This document shows, piece by piece, positions 1 to 11,192 of a DNA stretch of 11,192 bases. Both the position numbers and the translations under genes were made by a program. Position 1 is the stretch's first letter. Each line of letters starts with the position of its first letter. The notes beneath the pieces are model-generated. The model did no database searches. It was given only the letters and a program-made list of their open reading frames with translations, and was not told the origin of the DNA. Source of the stretch: Deinococcales bacterium (GTDB taxonomy: Bacteria; Deinococcota; Deinococci; Deinococcales; JAAFIG01); the NCBI GenBank assembly GCA_031414595.1, contig JANNVX010000043.1, positions 1 through 11,192 on the forward strand, read 5' to 3'.

Positions 1-5
1 TCACA

Positions 6-31
6 GGGCGGACACGGGGGTCCGCCCCTAC
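6..31 (-). repeat. GTAG-type REP-like palindrome, copy 1 (GTAGGGGCGGACCCCCGTGTCCGCCC on the - strand)
   Basis: GTAG tetranucleotide followed by a perfect 8-bp stem GGGCGGAC/GTCCGCCC with a 6-nt loop. This is the architecture of RAYT-associated GTAG REPs. A related inverted copy lies at 54-79. Confidence 0.75.
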
Positions 32-53
32 CTGACGTATTTTTATGATTTTT

Positions 54-79
54 GTAGGGACAGACCCCTGTGTCTGTCC
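54..79 (+). repeat. GTAG-type REP-like palindrome, copy 2 (GTAGGGACAGACCCCTGTGTCTGTCC)
   Basis: GTAG plus a perfect 8-bp stem GGACAGAC/GTCTGTCC with a 6-nt loop. Same length as copy 1, with compensatory base changes in the stem. Confidence 0.75.
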
Positions 80-110
80 TGCTAGGAAATGATATTTCGT
101 CGTTTCCAAT

Positions 111-524
111 TTGGGAAGTTATTTCAGGACAAATCCTAAGCGCCTGAACTGGGCAGTGCGGATACAGGGGACGAACGCGGTTGCTGGGCGAATTTCGTAC
201 TCAGAAATCAACGAAGCTAATAAATGGCTCGAGATTGGCACGATGCTGATGCCCGCCTTTTGGGGCAGCATGGCGAATCCAGAAGGGAAATTGTTGCTGA
301 TGACTAGGGCTTTTGAAGTCTTGCAAGTCAATCGGGTGCAATTTAAGGTGGATGTGCGTAACGAGCGCAGCCAAGGCAGTATGGCTAAAATGGGGGCAGT
401 GCGTGAAGGAGTCTTGCGCCAATATCAAATTCGTGCCGATGGTTTTGTGCGTGATAGCGTGATGTACAGCGTATTAAAGTCTGAATGGTTGGGCGTAAAG
501 CACAGGCTCGAGGCTCGAGTATGA
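111..524 (+). pseudogene. RimJ/RimL-family GNAT N-acetyltransferase, 5'-truncated or interrupted paralogue of 1166..1759
   Basis: Motifs WAVRI..VAGR, EIGTMLMPAFWG, NRVQFKVD.RNERS, GAVREGVLR and RDSVMYS are colinear with the 197-aa paralogue. About 60 N-terminal residues are missing, there is an in-frame TGA at 90-92, only a TTG start is available, and REP-like DNA lies upstream. Confidence 0.65.
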
Positions 525-528
525 CTTG

Positions 529-537
529 TGGTAGTAT
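529..537 (+). promoter_or_regulatory. Extended -10 element (TGnTAGTAT) for a probable leaderless TA transcript
   Basis: TGGTAGTAT ends 6 nt before ATG 544, and there is no Shine-Dalgarno sequence. Confidence 0.55.
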
Positions 538-543
538 CATGGT

Positions 544-780
544 ATGAAAGTTGCTATTTCAATTCCCAATAAAACTTTTGAGGCACTCGAAAAAATCGCC
601 ATAGAACGCGATTTATCACGCAGCGCTTTGTATACTCAGGCACTTGAAAAAATGTTGTTTGAACTCGAGCAAAATGCCTTGACCGAGCGTATTAACCAAG
701 CCATTGAAAATGGTGCTATTGACCAAGACACTGCATGGCAAGCTCATGCTGTACAGATGTTGGAGCGGGTTGAATGGTAA
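544..780 (+). CDS. Ribbon-helix-helix (CopG/MazE-like) type II antitoxin
   Basis: 78 aa. The N-terminal MKVAISIP...LSRSALYTQAL fits the RHH pattern, the C-terminus is acidic, and the gene overlaps the toxin start (ATGGTAA). Confidence 0.85.
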   Translation: MKVAISIPNKTFEALEKIAIERDLSRSALYTQALEKMLFELEQNALTERINQAIENGAIDQDTAWQAHAVQMLERVEW

Positions 781-1124
781 TTGAACGTGGCGAAATCTGG
801 TGGGCGCAACTCAATTCTAATCCTGTGGGTTCGAGTCCTGGTTTTCGTCGTCCAGTGCTGATTATTCAAACCAACGCAATCAATCAAAGTAACTTAAATA
901 CAGTTATTATTGTGGCTATTACGTCTAATCTTGCCTTGACAAGTATTCCTTTGAATGTACAACTCGAGCCGCTTGAATCAGGATTACCGCAAGTTTCGGT
1001 AGTCAATGTTTCGCAAGTGCAAACCATTGATAAATCTCAACTCGAGCAACGAGTCCAGAAATTACCAAGTGGAACGTTCCAAAAAATTATTCAGAATTTA
1101 CGTCATGTTTTGGAAATGCAGTGA
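774..1124 (+). CDS. mazF: PemK/MazF-family endoribonuclease toxin
   Basis: 116 aa with RGEIWWA, GSSPGFRRPVLIIQ, TVIIVAITS, SGL..VSVVNVSQVQTIDK. A GGAG SD is present and the gene is coupled to the antitoxin. Confidence 0.9.
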   Translation: MVIERGEIWWAQLNSNPVGSSPGFRRPVLIIQTNAINQSNLNTVIIVAITSNLALTSIPLNVQLEPLESGLPQVSVVNVSQVQTIDKSQLEQRVQKLPSGTFQKIIQNLRHVLEMQ

Positions 1125-1165
1125 GTTTTACTTGTCCAGCTTGTGGTTTTATGGCAGACTAAGCC

Positions 1166-1759
1166 ATGACCAACCAAGAAACTTGGCTCGAGCCTGTGCT
1201 AATTAAAGGCAAATACATTCATCTCGAGCCGCTTGACCCTGCGCTTCACGCTGCACCGATGTTTGAGTTTTTTGAGCCTCGAGTGACGACTTTTTTGGGT
1301 CCAAGCAGCAGTATCCCAATTGAATCAGTAGAAGCCATGCAAGCCCATCTCGAGCAACAAAAAACACGTCCTGGTTGTGTTCATTGGGCAGTGCGGATAA
1401 TCAAAACTGGGGCTGTGGCTGGACGGGTTTTATTTGCTGATGTGCAGGTAGCCAATGCTTGCCTAGAAATTGGTACGGTCTTAATGCCCGCCTTTTGGGG
1501 TGGTTTTGCCAATGCCGAATCTAAGTTATTATTGCTGACTCGAGCCTTCGAGTTACTTGGAGCAAATCGGGTGCAATTTACAGTGGATTCGGAAAACTCG
1601 CGTTCAATGGCTGCCTTACAAAAAATCGGGGCAATCAAAGAGGGTCTGCGTCGGCAGTGCCGAATTCGCTCGGATGGTTCGGTGCGTGACCATCTGGTGT
1701 TTAGTGTCATTAAGTCCGAATGGGCTATGGTCAAAGCAAATCTCGAGGCTCGAATTTAG
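1166..1759 (+). CDS. RimJ/RimL-family GNAT N-acetyltransferase
   Basis: 197 aa with L.GKYIHLEPL, EIGTVLMPAFWG, NAESKLLLLTRAFE, NRVQFTVDSENSRS, KIGAIKEGLRR and RDHLVFS. Confidence 0.9.
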   Translation: MTNQETWLEPVLIKGKYIHLEPLDPALHAAPMFEFFEPRVTTFLGPSSSIPIESVEAMQAHLEQQKTRPGCVHWAVRIIKTGAVAGRVLFADVQVANACLEIGTVLMPAFWGGFANAESKLLLLTRAFELLGANRVQFTVDSENSRSMAALQKIGAIKEGLRRQCRIRSDGSVRDHLVFSVIKSEWAMVKANLEARI

Positions 1760-2910
1760 CGCATTTGCTTGCTACTGATTCGGTTTTTACCCCGACGCTT
1801 GGCTTGGTACATGGCTTGGTCAGCACTGGTGAAGAAATCCTCGAGTTGCTGAGCAGCCGTTGGTACGCCACTGGCAATTCCAAAACTTGCTGTGACTTGA
1901 ATGTTGCCTTTTGCAGTATCAAAAGGTGTGTTGGCAATGGCTTTTCGGATGCGCTCAGCTACTTTTTTGGCTTGGCTTAGATTGGTTTCTGGTAGGATTA
2001 GCATAAATTCTTCGCCGCCAAACCGTGCAATCACATCTCCATGACGGCTATTCTCGAGCAGAATCAGGGCGGTTTTTTGTAGGACAGCATCGCCGATAGA
2101 GTGTCCGTAAGTGTCATTGATATTTTTGAATGAATCAAGGTCAAGGCTGATGACGCTAAAATTCGATTGGCTTCGTTTGTGCCTAGCTAGGGTAAGTTGA
2201 CCAAATTGTTGTAGTAAACGCCGATTGGATAATCCTGTCAGTGTATCGGTGTTGGCATGTTCGTACATATCGGCAAAGTGCTGGGTTAATCGGATGGCGG
2301 CGGCGGCGCGGCGGGCAAGAACATGTAAGAAATTGAGGTCGTCAGGTGAGATTTGTAGCACTTCCAGACTCAAGCAGTACAGCACCCCAAGCACTTGACG
2401 TTCATCTTTAATCGGTGTACCAACATAGCCTTTGAGATTATAGCTGTGCAGTAATGAATTGGCATTAAAAGGATCGTCTATGATGTTTGGAACGATAATG
2501 TCAGCAGCATTATCCACTACCCAACGGGTTGCCCCACCCGATGTACGAATTTTATGAACCACTTCATCGGGATTTTGTTTTGGCACGGTAGTTGCTGCCA
2601 CATCAAACGTTTGTGTTTTTGCATCCCATAAAATTGCACTCACCCCACCTGTGGCAGGCAGTAATTGCGAAGCGACTTCGCAAATTCGTTTCAGCATTTG
2701 TGTGATATTGACAACGCTCGGATCAAACATCTCGAGTTCTGCAAGTAATTCCATGCGACGCTGACCGAGTAACATTTGACTGTTTTGTAACGTTAGTAAT
2801 TCCTGCATGTCAATTTGATCAGAAAAAAAGTTGTTTTCTGTATTTATATTGGTATTGTAGACCTGAAATGATTGACGTGCAGCCATCAACATTTTTTTCT
2901 TTGCGTCCAT
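1756..2910 (-). CDS. GAF + GGDEF diguanylate cyclase
   Basis: DTLTGLSNRR, DLDSFKNINDTYGHSIGD, RFGGEEF with an RxxD I-site (RHGD), and ADQAMYQAK. A GAF-like segment lies upstream (GYVGTPI...LGVLYC). Start placed at ATG 2910 after AAGGGA; the ORF is open to 2991. Confidence 0.88.
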   Translation of the reverse strand: MDAKKKMLMAARQSFQVYNTNINTENNFFSDQIDMQELLTLQNSQMLLGQRRMELLAELEMFDPSVVNITQMLKRICEVASQLLPATGGVSAILWDAKTQTFDVAATTVPKQNPDEVVHKIRTSGGATRWVVDNAADIIVPNIIDDPFNANSLLHSYNLKGYVGTPIKDERQVLGVLYCLSLEVLQISPDDLNFLHVLARRAAAAIRLTQHFADMYEHANTDTLTGLSNRRLLQQFGQLTLARHKRSQSNFSVISLDLDSFKNINDTYGHSIGDAVLQKTALILLENSRHGDVIARFGGEEFMLILPETNLSQAKKVAERIRKAIANTPFDTAKGNIQVTASFGIASGVPTAAQQLEDFFTSADQAMYQAKRRGKNRISSKQMR

Positions 2911-3022
2911 AAATCCCTTTTTGAATTTTTGGTACTGATTCCAACAAGACAATGTCATATTGTTTTTCTTAATTGTGCAGTTCTCCATCATTGGTACGAC
3001 GACAAATCCCAGTTAAACCGCG

Positions 3023-3028
3023 TAAAAT
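3023..3028 (+). promoter_or_regulatory. -10 box TAAAAT, probable leaderless start of the ABC operon
   Basis: TAAAAT lies 6 nt upstream of ATG 3035 with no SD. Confidence 0.55.
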
Positions 3029-3034
3029 ACGTTC

Positions 3035-3982
3035 ATGAGTGTTGTTCTCGAGGTTAATCACCTCTCTAAAAAATATGGGACTCGAGCGGCGGTAGACGAT
3101 GTTTCGTTTACCTTAAATTCGGGTGAAGTGGTCGGGTTTCTGGGTCCTAACGGGGCGGGTAAAACCACAACCATGCGAATGATAGCTGGCTTAATTAGCC
3201 CAACCGGTGGCAATGTCAAACTGCTTGGTAAGTCCGTGCCAAGCGATGCCTTAAAGCACATGGGCGCAATGATTGAAGAGCCTTCATTTTATCCCTATCT
3301 TTCTGGGCGCGATAATTTGCGTTATGCTGCCAAATTACACGGTGGCATTTCTGAATCCCGCATCGAAGAAACCCTCGAATTAACCGGTATGAAAGCCAGA
3401 GGCGCAGACCGTGTTGCCAAATACAGCCAAGGAATGCGGCAACGCCTTGGATTGGCGCGGGCGCTTTTGTCCAGCCCCAAATTACTGATGCTCGATGAAC
3501 CCGCTAACGGGCTTGACCCCGAAGGAATTGCCGAACTGCGCGAAGTGATTAAGAGCTTTGGCGACCAAGGCATCACCGTCTTTGTCTCGAGCCATATTCT
3601 GTCCGAAGTCGAAAAATTTGCGCCTCGGGTGCTGATTATCAACAAAGGCAAGTTACTGCGTGATAGTAGTACCCATGATTTACGCCCGAGTGCTGGCGTA
3701 GATGGCTTAGACAGCACCTACCACCTCGAGACCACCGATGCAAGCAAGGCGCTTGAAGTGCTGCGCCGCGAACCCTACATTCAAAGCCTCGAGTTAATGC
3801 AAAGCGGTCTGTCTTTTCGTGTGCCGAAAGCCGCCGCTTACCGACTTGCGCCGCTTTTGGTGCAGGGCGGGGTGATGTTCACCCAACTCAAACGCCATGA
3901 ACAAATTGGCGCATCAACGGACTTAGAAAGCCTGTATTTAGAAGTGATTGGCGACCAAGGCAACGCTGGAGGGGTGAAATAA
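3035..3982 (+). CDS. ABC transporter ATP-binding protein (ABC-2/BcrA-like exporter)
   Basis: Walker A GPNGAGKT, signature YSQGM, Walker B LLMLDE and H-loop SSH. Confidence 0.95.
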   Translation: MSVVLEVNHLSKKYGTRAAVDDVSFTLNSGEVVGFLGPNGAGKTTTMRMIAGLISPTGGNVKLLGKSVPSDALKHMGAMIEEPSFYPYLSGRDNLRYAAKLHGGISESRIEETLELTGMKARGADRVAKYSQGMRQRLGLARALLSSPKLLMLDEPANGLDPEGIAELREVIKSFGDQGITVFVSSHILSEVEKFAPRVLIINKGKLLRDSSTHDLRPSAGVDGLDSTYHLETTDASKALEVLRREPYIQSLELMQSGLSFRVPKAAAYRLAPLLVQGGVMFTQLKRHEQIGASTDLESLYLEVIGDQGNAGGVK

Positions 3983-4908
3983 TGCTCGAGATGATTGGGG
4001 CTGAGGTTTTTAAGGCATTTAAGAAGAAGCGTTTCTGGGTTTTAATTATTTTATTTGGCATCATTGCGCCGCTCATTCAGTTAGTCACAGCAGGTTTTGT
4101 GACCAGCCGAGTTTCGGGAACAGTCGTGGACACAGGCGACGCAGTGGCAAAAGCCATTTCCGAGATTGCCTCGCCGTACAGTTTGGCACGCAACGGTATT
4201 GGCGGTTTACTGCCGCTCATGCTGCTGCCCTTAGCCGCCGTAGTTGGGATTTTCTTGGTCGGTGAAGAACGCACCTTTAAGATGTGGAAAACCATTTTGG
4301 TGGCAAATCCAGACCGAATGCGGGTTTTGGCAGCAAAATTTATAACAGGAATGCTGATTCTCGGTTCAATTATTCTGGCTGGAATTCTTGGTGGGGTTGT
4401 TTTTGGGGCAATTGCTATTCCGCTTGGGTTTGCCTCGAGTTTTGCTGGGGATTGGGGTAGTTTTTTCCTGATTGCCTTTTTGCAATGGCTGGTTTTGGCT
4501 GCGCCGCTTGCCCTTGGGTTTTTAATCAGTTGGTTATTTGCTTCCCCAGCCCTCGCCGTGATTGGTGTAGTGGTGCTGCCTTCTTTAATCGAAGGGATTT
4601 TAACCGCCAGTATCGTTTTTCAACTCAACCGTGTCTCGCCCTTAAATGCTGCCTTTCAAGCCGATAGACTGCGCCAAACCCTCGAGGAATGGACACGCTT
4701 TTTCTTTACCCCAAACCTAAACTTAGGACAGCGTTTAATTGGGCAATCCTTACAAAATTCTGGCTTAGGTGAATTTATTCCCAGTAATGTGCTACCTGTT
4801 CTCGAGTGGGATAAAATCTGGTGGTCGGTTGGCGCGGCGGGTGTGTACGGGCTGGTGTTCGCCGCAATTATGGTTTGGAGTTTTAGAACAAGGGACATTC
4901 ACGAATAA
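3982..4908 (+). CDS. ABC-2-type transporter permease
   Basis: Several hydrophobic TM segments and a GEERTFKMWKTILV...R.RVLAAK motif. It has a GGAGG SD and a TAATG stop/start overlap with the ATPase. Confidence 0.88.
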   Translation: MLEMIGAEVFKAFKKKRFWVLIILFGIIAPLIQLVTAGFVTSRVSGTVVDTGDAVAKAISEIASPYSLARNGIGGLLPLMLLPLAAVVGIFLVGEERTFKMWKTILVANPDRMRVLAAKFITGMLILGSIILAGILGGVVFGAIAIPLGFASSFAGDWGSFFLIAFLQWLVLAAPLALGFLISWLFASPALAVIGVVVLPSLIEGILTASIVFQLNRVSPLNAAFQADRLRQTLEEWTRFFFTPNLNLGQRLIGQSLQNSGLGEFIPSNVLPVLEWDKIWWSVGAAGVYGLVFAAIMVWSFRTRDIHE

Positions 4909-5885
4909 ATAAACTCAAAAGCGGCTTGGTACTGCCCAACTTCTAAGCCAGCATGATTTTTGAGGATTGGGGCTTGCCATGCAGCTAAGGCTTCGGGGTG
5001 ACTCAGTACACCTAATTGCGTCAGGACCCTATGCAGTGCTACTTCTAAGACCCGTTCCGAACCATCCTCTATTTTTGTAGCAATGCCAATGTTGCCATGT
5101 TGAGAATCACGCACCGCCATTAAGTTAATTGCTTCTGCCCCAATTTTAGAAACCAAGTTGTTCTGGCTCTGCATCAAGACCGTATCGGTGCGGTTTGTTC
5201 CAGCAATCAAATGCGGATGCGCTCGCATGGCGTTGTATGCCAACTCGAGACCACCTTCGTACTCGGGTAAACTTTGTGGTTCGGACAATCGCGCCATGCC
5301 AAGCGCTGCCTTCTCGAGCGAGACTTGATAACACGGCACACTGCAACCATCTATACCAATGCCCAGTTCTGGGGTGTCAAAACATTTTTGTACAACGCTT
5401 AGAATTTCTTGTTGCAACGGGTGTTCGGGTAAAAAATACGTTTGGGTTGGTAAGCCCTTGACCACACAAGCCGCCAGCATTGCCGCGTGTTTACCACTGC
5501 AATTATTTTGCAGCACAGAAGGTTTAATCCCAATCACCCGCATTTCTTTACGGGTAGCTGCGTCAAATGGCGTGTGCGTGCCACATTTTAGCCATGCCGA
5601 ATCCACTTTGGCTCGAGCCAGTAATTCTAAGACCGTTTCGACATGGGTGGCATCGCCAGCGTGGGAAGCCATGGCAATGGCTAAGTGCCTAGACTCGAGA
5701 CCTAAAGATTCTATAAATGGAATTAAAGGCTGAACCTGAAATGCCTTGGCGCTCGAGCGCAAAAAACTAAGAAACTGTGGATTGCCGACTGAAGCGATTA
5801 AACGCCCGTCGGCTGATACTACCGCCACATGAACTTTATGCCGAGACTCGAGCAGACCGCCACGCAAAACATGAACAAAAGACAT
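4899..5885 (-). CDS. L-asparaginase II family protein (Rhizobium-type, class 3 asparaginase)
   Basis: Family motifs RGGLLESRH, RSSAKAFQ, ASHAG, NNCSGKH, DGCSVP, KIGAEA and KIEDG. Confidence 0.88.
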   Translation of the reverse strand: MSFVHVLRGGLLESRHKVHVAVVSADGRLIASVGNPQFLSFLRSSAKAFQVQPLIPFIESLGLESRHLAIAMASHAGDATHVETVLELLARAKVDSAWLKCGTHTPFDAATRKEMRVIGIKPSVLQNNCSGKHAAMLAACVVKGLPTQTYFLPEHPLQQEILSVVQKCFDTPELGIGIDGCSVPCYQVSLEKAALGMARLSEPQSLPEYEGGLELAYNAMRAHPHLIAGTNRTDTVLMQSQNNLVSKIGAEAINLMAVRDSQHGNIGIATKIEDGSERVLEVALHRVLTQLGVLSHPEALAAWQAPILKNHAGLEVGQYQAAFEFIYS

Positions 5886-5891
5886 AAACCC

Positions 5892-5897
5892 AGTTTA
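5892..5897 (-). promoter_or_regulatory. -10 box TAAACT before the asparaginase gene
   Basis: 6 nt upstream of ATG 5885, within a 14-nt intergenic gap, with no SD. Confidence 0.5.
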
Positions 5898-5899
5898 TC

Positions 5900-6727
5900 T
5901 TACTGCTGGGCTTGAATGGTCACAGACACATCCAACGTCTCGAGTCCACCACCTCGGCGCAAGCCATGAAGCGGCGGAATATCGTCGTAATCGCGTCCAA
6001 AACCAATCCGAATATGGTTCTCGGTCTCGAGCAGGTTATTGGTCGGGTCAAACCCAATCCAACCGACACTGGGAATAAAAGCCTCGAGCCACGCATGGGT
6101 GGCTTCTGCCCCAAGAAAATCTGTACCCGCATAAACATAGCCACTGACATACCGCGCTGGAATACCTTGTGAACGACAGACCGCCAACATGGCATGGACA
6201 AAATCTTGACAAACCCCTGTGCCGTGCTGCACAAATTCAATCAGGGGCGTGTTGACCACCGTCACCCCTGCTTGAAACAAAAAACGATTTTTTAAGTGCG
6301 AATTTAAGCCCATTAAATACTCGAGCAGGTCATCTTCGGGCTTAATTGTGCGGTACTCGAGCAGGGCAACCCAATCGGAATCTAAGGAAACCCGTTTACA
6401 ACTGCTTAAAAATTCAAAGTATTCGGCTTTGTACGGTATTAAACTCAAAGCAGGAGCGCTGTTGGGAAATGGCTTTGGGTGCTTAACCACGACACTGTTG
6501 GTCTCGATTTTAAGACGCTGATGGGCTTCGAGAAGATGAAAATGATGGACGGTTGTGCCAAAATAATCTTTATTTACCGTCACTGCCACATCTGGAGCAA
6601 GCGACAGACGAAACGACAATAAACTCTGGAAATCATCGTGGGCGGGTTGCAAACGCAATTGATTAAACGAATCCGTAGCTGGAATCGGATACGAATACTC
6701 GGTGATATGGCGAATCTGCGCTCTCAT
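5900..6727 (-). CDS. Transglutaminase-like protein (bacterial transglutaminase N-terminal domain + core)
   Basis: N-terminal I.H.TEYSY...LRLQP and catalytic triad motifs GVCQDFVH, THAWLEA and GFDPTN, plus GRDYDD. Start re-assigned to MRAQIRH (6727) because the longer ORF start overlaps comF. Confidence 0.9.
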   Translation of the reverse strand: MRAQIRHITEYSYPIPATDSFNQLRLQPAHDDFQSLLSFRLSLAPDVAVTVNKDYFGTTVHHFHLLEAHQRLKIETNSVVVKHPKPFPNSAPALSLIPYKAEYFEFLSSCKRVSLDSDWVALLEYRTIKPEDDLLEYLMGLNSHLKNRFLFQAGVTVVNTPLIEFVQHGTGVCQDFVHAMLAVCRSQGIPARYVSGYVYAGTDFLGAEATHAWLEAFIPSVGWIGFDPTNNLLETENHIRIGFGRDYDDIPPLHGLRRGGGLETLDVSVTIQAQQ

Positions 6728-6734
6728 GGCTACT

Positions 6735-6740
6735 ATGCTA
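6735..6740 (-). promoter_or_regulatory. -10 box TAGCAT before the transglutaminase gene
   Basis: 7 nt upstream of ATG 6727 with no SD. Confidence 0.45.
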
Positions 6741-6750
6741 ACCCACAAAA

Positions 6751-7353
6751 CTAAGCCCGAGCTAAAACCGCCAAACGCACCCGTTTTGCACCTGCTTCGA
6801 TTAAACATAAACTGGCTTCGGTCAGGGTTGAACCACTGGTATGCACATCATCTATCAGCAGCACCTCGAGACCCGCCACAGATTGTTGTACTGCAAAGGC
6901 ATCCTCCAAGTTTTTTAAGCGCTCGCTTTTCTCAAGCCGCGCTTGTTGCTTGGTGGCTCGGGTACGCTCTAATGCCAGCAAGCACGGCACGCCCAACTCG
7001 AGCGCCACAGCTTGGGCTAATAACTCGGCTTGGTTATAGCCACGGTGTCTGACCCTCGAGCCATGCAATGGAATCGGAATAATTGCATCAAAAGACCATG
7101 CTGATTCTCGGGTTGCCAAAGCTAAACGCATCCCAAGTGGTTTAGCCACGGCTCGAGCTTCGGCAAATTTTAGGGCGCGAACCGCTTTCTCGAGACCCCC
7201 TTGGTATTTCCCAAAATGCAGGATGTTACCCTCGAGAACGGGCTTAAGGCTGCTTAGGCATTTGGTGCAAATACCACGTTCAGAACCACTCAAGTGCGCC
7301 TTGCACATGGCGCAGCGCATCGGCAGAATAACGTTCAGGATAGCCTCGAGCAT
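6751..7353 (-). CDS. comF: ComF family protein (zinc finger + phosphoribosyltransferase fold)
   Basis: CAMC...CTKC zinc finger, PIPLH, RGYNQAELLA and PRPP-binding LLIDDVHTSGSTL. Start at MLEAIL (7353) or MPMLE (7359). Confidence 0.9.
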   Translation of the reverse strand: MLEAILNVILPMRCAMCKAHLSGSERGICTKCLSSLKPVLEGNILHFGKYQGGLEKAVRALKFAEARAVAKPLGMRLALATRESAWSFDAIIPIPLHGSRVRHRGYNQAELLAQAVALELGVPCLLALERTRATKQQARLEKSERLKNLEDAFAVQQSVAGLEVLLIDDVHTSGSTLTEASLCLIEAGAKRVRLAVLARA

Positions 7354-7359
7354 GGGCAT

Positions 7360-7365
7360 AGTATA
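7360..7365 (-). promoter_or_regulatory. -10 box TATACT before comF
   Basis: 6 nt upstream of ATG 7353, just after the stop of the R-M gene. Confidence 0.55.
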
Positions 7366-7366
7366 A

Positions 7367-10300
7367 CTAGCTCGAGTACCGCCCATCCAACAACCGAATC
7401 TGCCCCAGCCCCACCAGCAACTCGAGCAATTCGGCAACTCGAGCCGCTTTAGCCCCCTTAAACCGCTTGGTAATTTCAGTGCTGCTCATCGGGTTTGCGC
7501 CGCGTATGGCGTTGCGAATGGCTTGGCTTTGTTCCCCAAGACTTTTAGGAAAAACCACTGGCTCGAGAACAACTGCCGCGCTTTCTGCTTCGGGCAATTC
7601 GAGGGCGGAATCTCGAGGGTTAGCCTTTGGGTTTTGGTATTCGGGGCGTAAATACAAAATTGTGCCGCGAGCTTCTTCTTGGTTGCGTTCTAAGTTTAAG
7701 CCCACTAAATTCTCGAGAATCTGAGCTTCGGTCAAGTCTGTGCGCCAACCATACGCCGTCGCAACCAGTGCATCCAAGCTGTTGTGCATCTCGAGTAAGC
7801 TGCTGATTAAACCAAGGCGATTGATGCGTTTTTCTTTTTCGTTAAGCGGTAGATTATTTTTTAGTTGCTCGAGAACATTGTACATTTCGGTTAGGGTCAG
7901 TTCTGAATGCGTTTCAAGTTGTCGTTTGCGGTGCGTGTCCAAACGTTCGGCAAGTTCACGGATTTGCTTTTTTTGCTCGAGATTTGCGTCTGGGAATGGG
8001 AATTTTTCAAAGCAAACAGTTTTCACATACACAGGTGTTGGACCGAGGATACTTCCTGTAGCCAGTGTCCAAACAAGATGAATTTGACTCGAGAGAACAC
8101 CTAAATAAAATGCGTCCTCGAGAGCAATGTTGACCAATTTATTATCTGGCAAAATGGTTTTGTCTAAGAATTGGAAAATACGGTGTTTCATGGTTTCGAC
8201 AGTTGAAATATAGCGCGATAATCCAATAAGTGCTGGTCGAAAAGCGCTACGAGGTTCGCCAAAAATCCACCAGTTATCCCGATATATCGCCCGATTATTG
8301 GTGTCTCGTTCGGGTTTCACATGAACCAAAAGATGCTGATAAACTTCTGGAAAACGTTCTTGTAATTCTGTTACCGACAATCCAAAAGCATCAATCACCA
8401 AGACATCCCGTGACTTTGACGTTAAATCCCGTCCGTTGCGATAAATTCGGATATGCTGCTCGAGTCCCGCAATTCTTCCCAAACCCAACAAAGCGGCTGT
8501 TTCTCGAGTCACAATAAAACCAGCCCCATGAAGTTTCACGCCCGGATTTGAAATTTCTAGGTTCGCAAGTAATTTTTTTGCACTGCTTAAATCTGCGCCA
8601 ATACTCAAATCGCCATGTATTTTTCCTCGAGATTCTTTGAACGTAACATCAAATTCGCCATCTTTATTTTTTTGTTCTGTGGTCACAAGAAGTTGTTGCC
8701 CCTCGAGTTCGCCTTGGGTAGCAACGGTCATGGCAATCCGCACGGCTGCACCATCGGCACTGTCCACCCACGGATGGTCTGGAATGGCGTACAACACACT
8801 GATGGGGTTCTTGGCGCTAAGGTGCGCCTCGAGAACCCGACGATTAAAGGTTTGTTTGATGCTGTTGGTGGTGATAAATCCAAAACGCTCGATTTGTTTT
8901 TCGCGCAATAATTTGGCTGCTGTGTTCCACCAGTACATCACAAAATCGCTGGATTCAGAAACATCATCATGGATTGCCCGAATTGTCTTGGTGTAGCCGT
9001 CGCCCAGTGTTTCACGCATTGGACCCGCCCCAATAAAAGGCGGATTGCCAATGATAAAATCGGTCTCGAGCCAAGTTGCTTTTTTTGGGTTCAGGTAGGC
9101 TTGTTCTGCCACCCGAGCCGTTTGGTCTGGGACTTCTAAACCTGTGGCTGGATTTATTTTTTTACTCACTCCGTCCCAACGGGTTATTGGCTGCCCGACA
9201 CTATCCAATTTGGCTTGGACACTTTCATACTCGAGGATTGCATCGCGGTTTTGGATGTTCTGGAAGGCTTTTAGCACCGGCGAAGGCGGATTGACATTGC
9301 CATGGGTCTTAAAATGCCATTGTAAATAGCCAATCCAAAGCACCAATTCGGCAATCTGGGCGGCTCTGGGGTTAATTTCGATGCCTAAAAACTGGTGTGG
9401 GTCTACGGTGTTTAAGTCCATCTCGAGGCGGCGGTCTCCGCCTACCAGTTCAAGCGCATCTAAAACCTCGCCCTCGAGCCGCTTGATCATCTCGAGCGCC
9501 ACATACAAAAAATTTCCACTGCCACAAGCTGGGTCGAGGACTTTCACTTGGCAAAGATACTGATGAAAGGTTTCGATTTTGCCAATTGCGGCTTTTTTTG
9601 CCGCCTGAATTTTTGGGCTTGTACCAGCAAAATCTTTTTTTTCTTTGGGGTCAAGTTGTAAACGCGCCACTGTCTCGAGGTCGGCACTAAATTCGATTTG
9701 CACGGCTGCCCAATGCTGGCGCAACGGCTCGAGAATTGTCCAATTGACCAGCCGCTCGACGTATGCCCGTGGGGTGTAGTGTGCGCCAAGTTTATGGCGT
9801 TCTTTGGGGTCAAGCGCCCGCTCGAGCAACGTGCCAAAAATAGCGGGTTCGACCTCACCCCATTCTTGCTGACTGGCTTCTATCACCAAACGCAATTGTT
9901 CTTCGCTTAAATTTAAGGCGCTCGAGTCCAAAAATAATCCGCCATTAAAATGCAGAATCTGGGCTGCAAATTGTGGACTGAATCCGCCCGTGTTCATGGT
10001 CGCCCAGAGCGGTTCGATAAAGGCTTTGAAATGCTGCGCGTTGCCAATAATCCCCTCGAGATAGCCCGTGAATTTACCTTTGGGCAATAAGCCCATGTCC
10101 TCGGCAAACATCGTAAAAATTAGGCGCATTAAAAACCCACTGACCACCTCGGGCGAATGTTCTCGCTCGAGTAAACGGCTTAGCACCGCCAAACGGTCGG
10201 CAATGGCTCGGGTGGCTTTGGCACTGCGCCGGCTTGGGTCAAGGCTGAGTGGGTCAAGCCAAACAGCCCGTAAGCGCTCGAGAACACTTGGGTCGTGCAA

Positions 10301-10828
10301 ATCCTCAAGCATGATGCGGTAATTGCTCGGGGTTGGAAAAGGCACATAAACCCCGCCGCTTTGGGTGAATTCGCTAAACAACTCGAGACTAAAACCAACG
10401 TCTGCCACAATAATAAACGGCGGACGACCCTCGGCAATGGGTAAGCTCCTCGCGTAGCCTTCGGCTTGGGCTTTGGCTTTGACCATGGCTTTATCCCAAG
10501 AAGCCGTGCCACGTTTTGCCGTACCAGATTTGACTTTGGGGGCAGCAAATAATTCGGTGGCGGCTACAGCTTGGCTACCTTGTTTGGCTTCAAAAACAAA
10601 AGCGCTGCGTTTATAGCAATCAATAAAATTGGTGCTGCTCGAGCCATCCAAATGGGTGATGGTCAGGCTTTTTTCAAAAACATATTCGTTTTCGGTATTG
10701 ATGCCACTCGAGGGGTTTGGGCTTGGGACGTTTAATAAAGCACAAAGGTCAGTGATGAAAAGCTGGTAATTGGCGCGTTCACTGGCGGCGCTGTTCGCCC
10801 AACGGGTGATAAAATCAGTTGCGGTCAT
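7367..10828 (-). CDS. MmeI-like (Type IIL/IIG) fused restriction endonuclease / N6-adenine DNA methyltransferase, about 1153 aa
   Basis: N-terminal ERANYQLF and PD-(D/E)xK-like FIDCYK....FEAKQ, then FNGGLF, IFGTLLE and LGAHYTP. MTase motif I is [12 protein letters not shown] and motif IV is IIGNPPF, followed by a C-terminal TRD region (FEKFPFP). Start re-assigned to MTATDF (10828). Confidence 0.88.
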
Positions 10829-10833
10829 GGGGT

Positions 10834-10839
10834 ATTGTA
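10834..10839 (-). promoter_or_regulatory. -10 box TACAAT before the R-M gene
   Basis: 5 nt upstream of ATG 10828 with no SD. Confidence 0.55.
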
Positions 10840-10843
10840 CTTC

Positions 10844-11192
10844 GGTAGTTAAGTGGAATGATTCCGCGCAGCCAAAGCCCAAACAGTCGTGACCACCAAC
10901 TCAGCCCAAGACCAGACTCGAGAAGTAATACCAATTGCCATAGCAGGAGTACGTTGTTCAAATCGTTTACGCCCAATCGATTCTACCAAAGGCACGCGTA
11001 AACTCCGATTTGTGCGAACCCAATTATAAGCCAAACGAGTAATTTCAGCCGCGTAAACTCGAGACCGAGGAAGCCGAGCAAACAATAAGCCTTTACGACC
11101 CATGAACATGGTGCTTTCGCGGGCAGAACCATTGTATCTCTCAATTGCACTGGTATTGGCAATATTGTACCCAAGTCGGGTATTTTCGAGTT
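10844..11192 (-). mobile_element. Right end of a probable IS1-family insertion sequence (continues beyond the window)
   Basis: Transposase C-terminus whose stop abuts GGTAGTTAAGTGG at 10844. GGTRRT is typical of IS1-family terminal inverted repeats. The partner IR is outside the window. Confidence 0.6.
10849..11190 (-). CDS. IS1-family DDE transposase, C-terminal part (5' end outside the window)
   Basis: The frame is open to the window edge: ...NTSAIERYNGSAR...RK..F.R...AYNWVRTNRSLR...RTPAMAIGITSRVWSWAEL. This matches the NT..IER.N...R and YN..R.H.SL...TPA motifs of IS1-family transposases. Confidence 0.78.
   Translation of the reverse strand, partial: LENTRLGYNIANTSAIERYNGSARESTMFMGRKGLLFARLPRSRVYAAEITRLAYNWVRTNRSLRVPLVESIGRKRFEQRTPAMAIGITSRVWSWAELVVTTVWALAARNHST

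Follow-up and report, generated by a model that had tools for sequence, protein, structure and literature searches.

CTCGAG, a hyper-abundant palindrome in a family of Deinococcales and a candidate self-DNA signal read by local density

Background

Contig JANNVX010000043.1 of a Deinococcales bacterium raises a simple question: why does one six-base palindrome, CTCGAG, recur throughout its genes? The stretch analysed here (the window, 11,192 nt) is the entire contig, C43 of assembly G000. An earlier note, made from the letters of the window, had counted about 75 copies by hand, put the excess at about 25-fold and proposed a genome-marking system resembling HIP1, the highly iterated palindrome of cyanobacteria. 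For some thirty years highly iterated palindromes have puzzled researchers, and published descriptions of them are confined to cyanobacteria. Here we describe how abundant CTCGAG is in this genome and its relatives, how individual copies are kept, lost and created, and which explanations fit these observations.

Results

CTCGAG is hyper-abundant in the window and throughout the genome

The window contains exactly 75 copies of CTCGAG between positions 228 and 11063 (6.7/kb), all within open reading frames (ORFs) of this gene-dense contig, and the hand count was thus correct. A zero-order expectation gives 2.5 copies; dinucleotide-preserving shuffles of the window (n = 200) gave a mean of 1.37 and a maximum of 7 copies, none of the 200 reaching 75. 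The estimate of a 25-fold excess is therefore conservative, as composition yields about 30-fold and the dinucleotide shuffle about 55-fold. The counts given earlier for single genes were reproduced (GNAT1 3, antitoxin 1, mazF 2, GNAT2 6, GGDEF 3, ATPase 5, permease 4, asparaginase 6, TGase 5, comF 7, restriction-modification (R-M) gene 31, ORF at the contig end 2), the sole mismatch being the longest comF-like ORF (6751-7437), which holds 9 copies, 2 of these in its overlap with the R-M gene. As claimed, the motif occurs in all three frames: 52 copies are read as CTC-GAG, 13 as xCT-CGA-G and 9 as xxC-TCG-AG, and the remaining copy, at 664, encodes Leu-Glu in frame in a 78-aa ORF (544-780) upstream of the MazF-like gene. 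The TCGA core is likewise not enriched outside CTCGAG, with 27 such occurrences in the window versus 43.5 expected for TCGA in total.

Confinement of the excess to the window would have spoken against a genome-marking system; instead, 23,235 copies are distributed across G000 (4,488,778 bp in 120 contigs, the largest of 305 kb; 47.2% GC), corresponding to 5.18/kb or about one per 190 bases. All contigs longer than 2 kb carry 2.3-8.6 copies/kb. CTCGAG is the commonest hexamer of the genome, followed, apart from words overlapping it, by AAAAAA with 5,616 copies. In the genome-wide hexamer comparison that the earlier note had proposed, the excess held under each Markov model (24-fold over the zero-order, 43-fold over the first-order and 18-fold over the second-order expectation).

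The enriched word is exactly this hexamer. Positions flanking CTCGAG carry at most 0.026 bits each in G000, and therefore the word is a bare hexamer and no part of a repeat family; on the same grounds a longer motif was rejected, and the 8-bp palindromic extension is even rarer than expected (0.19 versus 0.26). A degenerate CYCGRG was rejected, with CCCGGG at 0.3-fold and CCCGAG/CTCGGG at 1.11-fold of expectation, and so was TCGA as the true target, since outside CTCGAG it reaches 0.59-fold genome-wide. Words one transition away from CTCGAG are not depleted (1.07-1.23-fold), and this includes the deamination products CTTGAG/CTCAAG (1.07-fold).

CTCGAG is a DNA-level word that has reshaped the proteome

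Genes were called by our own greedy longest-ORF procedure, which gave 3,866 ORFs covering 88% of G000. The density of CTCGAG was 5.15/kb in coding (20,420 copies) and 5.34/kb in non-coding DNA (2,852 copies), and the coding copies were divided among the three frames as 12,102, 4,005 and 4,313, CTC-GAG being the first. When codons were permuted within each gene, so that every protein and the codon usage of each gene were kept, five runs of this synonymous shuffle gave 1,938-2,027 copies. A 10-fold excess thus remains, amounting to 9-15-fold in every frame, and this bears out the earlier statement that the excess is not simply Leu-Glu codon bias. Together with the equal density in non-coding DNA it shows that CTCGAG is a by-product of neither codons nor proteins.

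The effect on proteins is nevertheless large. Leu-Glu occurs 20,173 times in the G000 proteome versus 9,074 expected (2.2-fold), compared with 0.98-fold for Glu-Leu. CTC-GAG encodes 60% of the Leu-Glu pairs, despite CTC accounting for 15.5% of Leu codons and GAG for 33% of Glu codons, and 52% of CTC codons have GAG next. Pressure for CTCGAG has therefore reshaped the proteome by about 11,000 extra Leu-Glu pairs.

Across gene starts the profile of CTCGAG is flat with a dip to 4.1/kb at the start codon, and around stop codons there is a modest rise to 6.6-7.4/kb (1.3-fold), on which grounds a promoter or operator site was rejected. An RNA element was also rejected, since neither the window nor the stretches free of CTCGAG matched any Rfam family. 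CTCGAG is a word at the DNA level rather than a signal in peptides, codons or RNA.

The excess is family-wide and graded across the order

Among 151 sampled genomes of the order, all 19 genomes of the window's family, belonging to five genera, had 4.3-6.8 copies/kb, and the survey of relatives suggested earlier thus found the excess throughout the family. Other families differed widely. In family f3 (36 genomes) CTCGAG is depleted to 0.01-0.27/kb (37-1,193 copies per genome); family f2 has 0.3-2.6/kb and family f4 0.7-2.9/kb, and within family f5 genus g9 has about 0.6-1.1/kb and genera g13, g22 and g24 have 1.4-3.4/kb. Shuffle comparisons on 100-kb samples were made for the family member G033 (a single contig, 58.7% GC) and for three genomes of other families (61-64% GC). 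G033 showed 4.5 copies/kb, 6.4/kb in spacers, and 5.0-fold excess over synonymous shuffles, and the three others 2.1-2.3/kb, hexamer rank 2-3 and 2.7-3.4-fold excess. The excess of CTCGAG is hence extreme in the window's family and less pronounced in other parts of the order, with a depletion instead in f3, and its density is independent of GC content, at about one copy per 150-230 bp at both 47% and 59% GC.

Viral contigs were searched with a pattern of three CTCGAG within short gaps, which demands clustered sites and so yields a biased sample. GC-rich IMG/VR contigs with 3-6 copies/kb, 8-18-fold over composition, were among the matches listed (L239, L255, L276, L282, L310 and others). None of the 80 matches listed resembled G000 (the 25 densest had 55-71% GC and up to 6 copies/kb), and the scan is therefore uninformative on the phages of the family.

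Copies are retained, and new copies are gained, beyond control words

Seven regions of G000 (131 kb, 2.9% of the genome) were projected by BLAST onto five congeners, and the retention of CTCGAG was compared with that of same-phase hexamers within 60 bp (Table 1). Copies in non-coding DNA were retained as well, in G003 for instance 39 of 47 (0.28 in the control). Identity at third codon positions was 0.78-0.93 inside CTCGAG versus 0.53-0.84 outside. In 36,377 aligned columns from four deep lineages, 98 of 197 G000 copies were shared by all lineages, compared with 3,004 of 36,180 control hexamers.

Table 1 Retention of G000 copies of CTCGAG in five congeners (identity from the first four regions)
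Genome	Identity to G000	Copies retained	Fraction	Control fraction
G005	~92%	440/504	0.87	0.66
G001	~92%	407/471	0.86	0.60
G007	77-80%	217/287	0.76	0.24
G003	77-80%	336/433	0.78	0.26
G006	77-80%	203/307	0.66	0.22

A hexamer counted as ancestral when two or all of the three other lineages had it in common, by parsimony on a near-star tree. Ancestral copies of CTCGAG were kept in 557 of 760 lineage-sites (0.73 versus a baseline of 0.44). At the same time 41 new copies had been gained versus 4.56 expected from the average substitution pattern, i.e. 9-fold. Since this baseline understates multi-step synonymous paths, the control words matter: 300 random words reached at most 3.09-fold, and 2.59-fold was the highest value among the 50 commonest other words. 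The gains were mostly two- or three-step synonymous recodings, e.g. TTA-GAA to CTC-GAG or NCA-AGG to NCT-CGA; the majority of new copies recode an existing Leu-Glu, and others alter the residues. Import by recombination was rejected as the source of gains, as lineage-specific flank differences were 0.060 versus 0.050 (p = 0.16).

The loss of copies depended on their neighbours (Mann-Whitney p = 0.005). The lost fraction was 0.31 with the nearest copy at 13-30 bp, 0.26 both at 31-60 bp and at 61-120 bp, 0.18 at 121-250 bp and 0.22 beyond 250 bp (n = 32), and 21 of 23 copies with another one within 12 bp were lost. Of the 41 gains, 19 lay within 30 bp of a copy present in another lineage, which points to relocation of sites. 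In a smaller data set a compensating gain within 100 bp was not clearly more frequent at losses (14 of 150) than at kept sites (20 of 406; p = 0.07). In this smaller data set the three close genomes had lost 46 of 454 ancestral copies, and ordinary hexamers changed in 21% of cases. Of the losses, 21 were single transitions, 5 were single transversions and 20 involved several bases, and no one position stood out as a hotspot of deamination (C1-to-T 10 versus C3-to-T 8). Sites present only or absent only in one lineage were in balance in G003 (22 and 14), G007 (18 and 19) and G006 (38 and 31). Altogether, a fixation bias preserves copies of CTCGAG and creates new ones, and it is weaker where another copy is nearby. 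This pressure is old and extends to the whole family.

Spacing of copies and word-free DNA

Compared with a Poisson distribution, gaps between copies below 20 bp were reduced to 0.4-0.5-fold, gaps of 50-200 bp were raised to 1.1-1.27-fold and gaps of 400-1000 bp were reduced to 0.67-0.86-fold, the short-range pattern being in agreement with neighbour-dependent loss. The overall spacing was Poisson-like (coefficient of variation (CV) 0.99; variance-to-mean ratio 1.01 in 1-kb windows). Pairs exactly 7 bp apart (CTCGAGNCTCGAG) occurred 101 times in G000, versus 17 pairs at 8 bp and 20 at 9 bp; their middle base is without bias and every context is unique.

The longest stretches free of CTCGAG measure 1.8-4.9 kb, have 35-45% GC and encode a glycosyltransferase, flippase, acetyltransferase, Wzy-type ligase, SUKH immunity protein, DUF2326, NOV_C and comparable accessory functions. 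Such word-free islands of 35-42% GC bear genes for surface polysaccharides and genes of defence type. Ribosomal RNA operons were rejected as their cause, as no rRNA but low-GC accessory genes were located there. Windows below 36% GC had 1.3 copies/kb, with an excess over their own composition of 14.5-fold versus about 24-fold. Resident DNA thus carries CTCGAG, and recently arrived DNA, i.e. low-GC accessory islands and a mobile repeat, is without it. One low-GC, CTCGAG-free locus (G000:C14:27187-38127) consists of a 3,646-aa ORF followed by small ORFs, one with a SUKH/SMI1 domain, and looks like a polymorphic-toxin and immunity locus.

Methyltransferases, repair enzymes and competence genes

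The family genomes are metagenome-assembled genomes (MAGs) with 57-94% completeness, so a gene that is not found in one of them need not be absent. G000 encodes at least 23 methyltransferase ORFs, of which the best a priori candidate was a 564-aa gamma-class adenine methylase on contig C89, related to M.BseCI/CamA. It was rejected as the common enzyme because it is present in 3 of 18 other family genomes, and so was a methylase on contig C4, found in 2 of 18. TaqI_C enzymes (6 of 19 family genomes), 5-methylcytosine (m5C) enzymes (PF00145; not found in G010, which is 91% complete, or in G002) and N4/N6 enzymes (not found in the single-contig G033 or in G012, G050 and G002) were rejected on the same grounds. 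D12-class enzymes occur in 18 of 19 genomes; they form at least three non-orthologous groups, all three missing from G006 and G007, and were rejected too. For gamma-class and type I enzymes no common orthologue was evident in the five best genomes. The earlier note had suggested looking for co-occurrence of the palindrome with an orphan XhoI/PaeR7I-like methyltransferase; such a link gained no support, as every methyltransferase group traced was sporadic in the family.

The XhoI nuclease domain (PF04555) had no match in G000, with none in 14 control genomes either, and the PaeR7I nuclease family was not searched. A Vsr profile matched 0 of the 19 family genomes and, as a control, was matched in three reference genomes; methylation-directed repair, one of the mechanisms suggested earlier, is thus left without support. 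ComEC was detected in 18 of 19 family genomes, and the window itself has a ComF-like gene.

Several other words are avoided in G000. Of the 64 palindromic hexamers, 31 occur at 0.08-fold or less (e.g. TGCGCA 2, CGATCG 3 and GAGCTC 6 copies), GGCC has 152 copies (0.01-fold), GATC reaches 0.14-fold and TTCGAA has 29 copies. Avoidance of these palindromes fits the number of methyltransferase ORFs. The RTCGAY words are nearly gone (ATCGAT 89, GTCGAC 26, ATCGAC 63 and GTCGAT 59 copies; about 1,000-1,200 expected), and depletion of the non-palindromic ones suggests pressure from a degenerate RTCGAY specificity.

Other features of the window

The annotated features of the window are listed in Table 2. 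Orthologous DNA to the stretch with the ABC transporter genes was found in G005, G001, G007, G003 and G006 at 75-93% DNA identity. For the L-asparaginase II gene, the best 7 loci belonged to Deinococcales/Deinococcota MAGs (69-94% identity), the next at about 40% to Acidobacteriota, which puts the organism with the uncultured Deinococcales or Deinococcota. Stretches orthologous to the MmeI-family R-M gene exist in G005 and G001 (90-91% DNA identity) and G003 (65-68%), and because of these the gene is a long-term resident. The dispersed repeat gave 98 BLAST matches in G000, several of them exactly at contig ends, and congeners have dozens of copies; it is probably a miniature inverted-repeat transposable element or the end of an insertion sequence at which the assembly breaks. 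The other end of the contig (10839-11192) has a second copy on contig C73 (99% identical) and a 100% match in G005, and the ORF there (10849-11190), which the earlier note took for an insertion sequence, is without a Pfam match.

Table 2 Features of the window
Feature	Position	Strand	Basis and remarks
Dispersed repeat of about 140 bp, window copy without CTCGAG	1..140		BLAST; first CTCGAG at 228
CTCGAG pair 7 bp apart, CTCGAGNCTCGAG	507..519		Positions and genome-wide pair count
ABC ATPase and ABC-2 permease genes, 9 CTCGAG	3035..4908	+	Pfam; example of retained copies
L-asparaginase II gene, 6 CTCGAG	4899..5885	-	Pfam
MmeI-family type IIL R-M gene, 1,171 aa, 31 CTCGAG (8.8/kb)	7367..10882	-	Domains MmeI_N, MmeI_hel, MmeI_Mtase, MmeI_TRD and Eco57I

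Discussion

On balance we lean, with moderate confidence, towards CTCGAG being a highly iterated palindrome that serves as a self-DNA signal through its local density, preferably in DNA uptake, recombination or repair. The reader would be a protein with sequence specificity, shared within the family, that tells resident from foreign DNA, and local density, more than each individual site, would be what it reads. Segments carrying CTCGAG would reach fixation more readily, in parallel to the molecular drive described for uptake sequences, and this parallel is one reason for preferring such a role. Other reasons come from HIP1, for which such fixation has been proposed as well: in the accessible parts of the two sources, HIP1 sites promote natural transformation, by more than 100-fold when they are methylated (Kamoku and Nielsen 2024 preprint), and HIP1 abundance co-varies with proteins belonging to the type IV secretion system (PMC13756078). 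We read the evolution of the sites in the genomes studied here as conservation of local density alongside that of individual sites, which narrows the mechanisms to those that read density.

Several points weigh against this reading. Single-step gains amounted to 4 versus 2.2 expected, so that the excess of gains consists of two- and three-step recodings, and the baseline for gains does not account for faster synonymous sites, a flaw that the control words share. The neighbour effect on loss is moderate, and control hexamers follow the same trend, though much more weakly (from 0.60 to 0.53). Copies are lost at about half the control rate, i.e. single sites are weakly held. Furthermore, the G000 lineage loses more sites than it gains (10 present only versus 32 absent only), which fits its lower density (5.2/kb in the G000/G001/G005 lineage versus 5.9-6.4/kb in G003, G006 and G007). 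The evolutionary analysis rests on BLAST projections, parsimony, our own longest-ORF calls and 2.9% of G000. With regard to uptake, the known uptake sequences (the uptake signal sequence, USS, of Pasteurellaceae and the DNA uptake sequence, DUS, of Neisseriaceae) are 9-12 nt long, asymmetric and present at about 1/kb; to our knowledge Thermus and Deinococcus take up DNA without sequence specificity, and we know of no uptake bias in Deinococcota. No reader protein was identified, and ComEC, being nearly universal, discriminates nothing by its presence.

A narrower version of the self-DNA reading, in which no methyltransferase takes part, appears possible and is put forward tentatively. Here an uptake, recombination or nuclease-control protein would read CTCGAG in either direction, so that the word acts as an uptake signal does or as a Chi site would if it were symmetric. 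This would favour resident DNA, which has one site per 150-230 bp, over foreign DNA, in which a site occurs about every 4 kb. Within Deinococcales such a system, as yet undescribed, would be ancient, strongest in the window's family and milder in several others, with avoidance in f3; that the G000/G001/G005 lineage loses more sites than it gains would be a sign that the system is weakening in it.

Rather unlikely, in our view, is a strict analogue of HIP1 following Elhai's model, in which a CTCGAG methyltransferase marks the sites and methyl-directed mismatch repair, replication control or transformation favours their density. In its favour, CTCGAG is about as dense here as GATC is in E. coli, and G000 encodes at least 23 methyltransferase ORFs. 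In cyanobacteria HIP1 and the alternative palindromes accompany methyltransferases (PMC4390886), methylated HIP1 strongly promotes transformation in the preprint cited above, and CTCGAG methylation is reported to be common to genomes and phages of one hot-spring host-phage network (10.64898/2026.06.24.734251), each as far as the accessible text of these sources goes. Against the model, none of the methyltransferases (C89, C4, TaqI_C, m5C, N4/N6, D12, gamma-class and type I) tracks CTCGAG, and no single hotspot of deamination is seen among the losses. Non-orthologous enzymes of the same specificity may methylate CTCGAG.

The next explanation, an array for a nucleoid-structuring protein, we regard as improbable. 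A dimeric protein would bind the palindrome every 150-230 bp and compact or organise the chromosome, which agrees with a uniform density that depends neither on GC content nor on genes or reading frames, with the flat profile across gene starts, with the deficit of both very close and long gaps, and with the neighbour-dependent loss. A role in chromosome structure has also been argued for HIP1, whose sites are conserved and periodic on a large scale (10-90 kb) (Xu et al. 2018, PMC5861425, accessible in part). However, no candidate protein was found, the spacing of CTCGAG is near Poisson in both its CV and its variance-to-mean ratio, and accessory islands without the word would be left unorganised.

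Still less credit can be given to a mutational drive without function, in which a short-patch repair or conversion activity with a bias makes CTCGAG out of near-matches and restores damaged copies, the cell gaining nothing from it. Conservation and excess gains are equally expected from a conversion bias, as are the equal coding and non-coding densities and the lack of the word in new DNA. Such a drive fits worst with three observations: loss depends on neighbours, which a site-autonomous repair bias does not predict; Vsr was found in none of the 19 family genomes; and one-off words are not depleted and are converted little above expectation (the 4 versus 2.2 single-step gains). The excess also burdens the proteome with about 11,000 additional Leu-Glu dipeptides. 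A by-product of codon usage, Leu-Glu-rich proteins or a dispersed repeat, or an assembly or cloning artefact, is already refuted, for although 59% of the coding copies are in frame as CTC-GAG (12,102 of 20,420), the excess over synonymous shuffles, the equal density outside genes, the disproportionate use of CTC-GAG for Leu-Glu, the unconserved flanks and the recurrence of the same excess in 19 independently assembled genomes all speak against it.

CTCGAG adds to HIP1 a second case, independent and denser, that comes from another phylum, uses another word and is graded in intensity across related families. This gradation allows comparative tests, both of the genes that track CTCGAG and of the need for methylation, and the contrast between G000/G001/G005 and G003/G006/G007 could help to find the responsible gene. 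The case also exemplifies a DNA-level pressure strong enough to recode a proteome. In practice the word provides a strong marker when these genomes are binned or searched for foreign DNA. Unless modification protects it, G000 DNA would be cut by XhoI to pieces averaging about 190 bp, and should CTCGAG govern uptake or recombination, genetic tools for Deinococcales may have to take it into account.

Comparison with known systems

With the XhoI and PaeR7I R-M systems the palindrome shares the recognition site itself. Restriction depletes its site, as seen for CTCGAG in f3 and for the 31 other palindromic hexamers in G000, whereas CTCGAG is enriched here. Very-short-patch repair by Dcm/Vsr raises CCWGG in E. 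coli to a small extent, and there too a repair bias at a palindromic methylation site shifts word frequencies. In contrast to that small effect the excess here is 24-fold, Vsr is found in 0 of 19 genomes, m5C enzymes are not universal and the deamination products CTTGAG/CTCAAG are not depleted.

Like USS and DUS, CTCGAG is over-represented in genes and spacers by a fixation bias, its positions are conserved among relatives, its spacing is more even than random, it is rare in newly acquired DNA, and a competence channel is present (ComEC, 18 of 19 genomes). Unlike them it is a 6-bp palindrome with uninformative flanks at 5.2/kb, and a palindrome of this length gives a discrimination by density of only about 20-fold.

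A published description of CTCGAG hyper-abundance was not found in the literature searched, which left most subscription journals outside its coverage; two papers that were found mention CTCGAG, in their accessible parts only as a methylated motif. The closest parallel is HIP1 (GCGATCGC), described for cyanobacteria together with the alternative palindromes GGCGCC, GCsGC and rCCGGy (PMC4390886, accessible in part). The two differ in word and phylum (CGATCG has only 3 copies in G000), in length (a 6-mer versus an 8-mer) and in density (4.3-6.8/kb versus the 0.3-2.7/kb quoted for HIP1 in the accessible text). HIP1 is often extended, whereas extension of CTCGAG to 8 bp is disfavoured; moreover, no family-wide methyltransferase was found here, and the proteome has shifted 2.2-fold in Leu-Glu. 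What they share is a short palindrome hyper-abundant genome-wide, in all frames and in spacers, throughout a lineage and as neither a peptide nor a codon signal. Its sites are conserved between genomes beyond background, the criterion that Xu et al. (2018) apply in the accessible part of their paper, and they are re-created beyond control words, so that the HIP1-like behaviour surmised from the window alone extends to the whole genome and the whole family.

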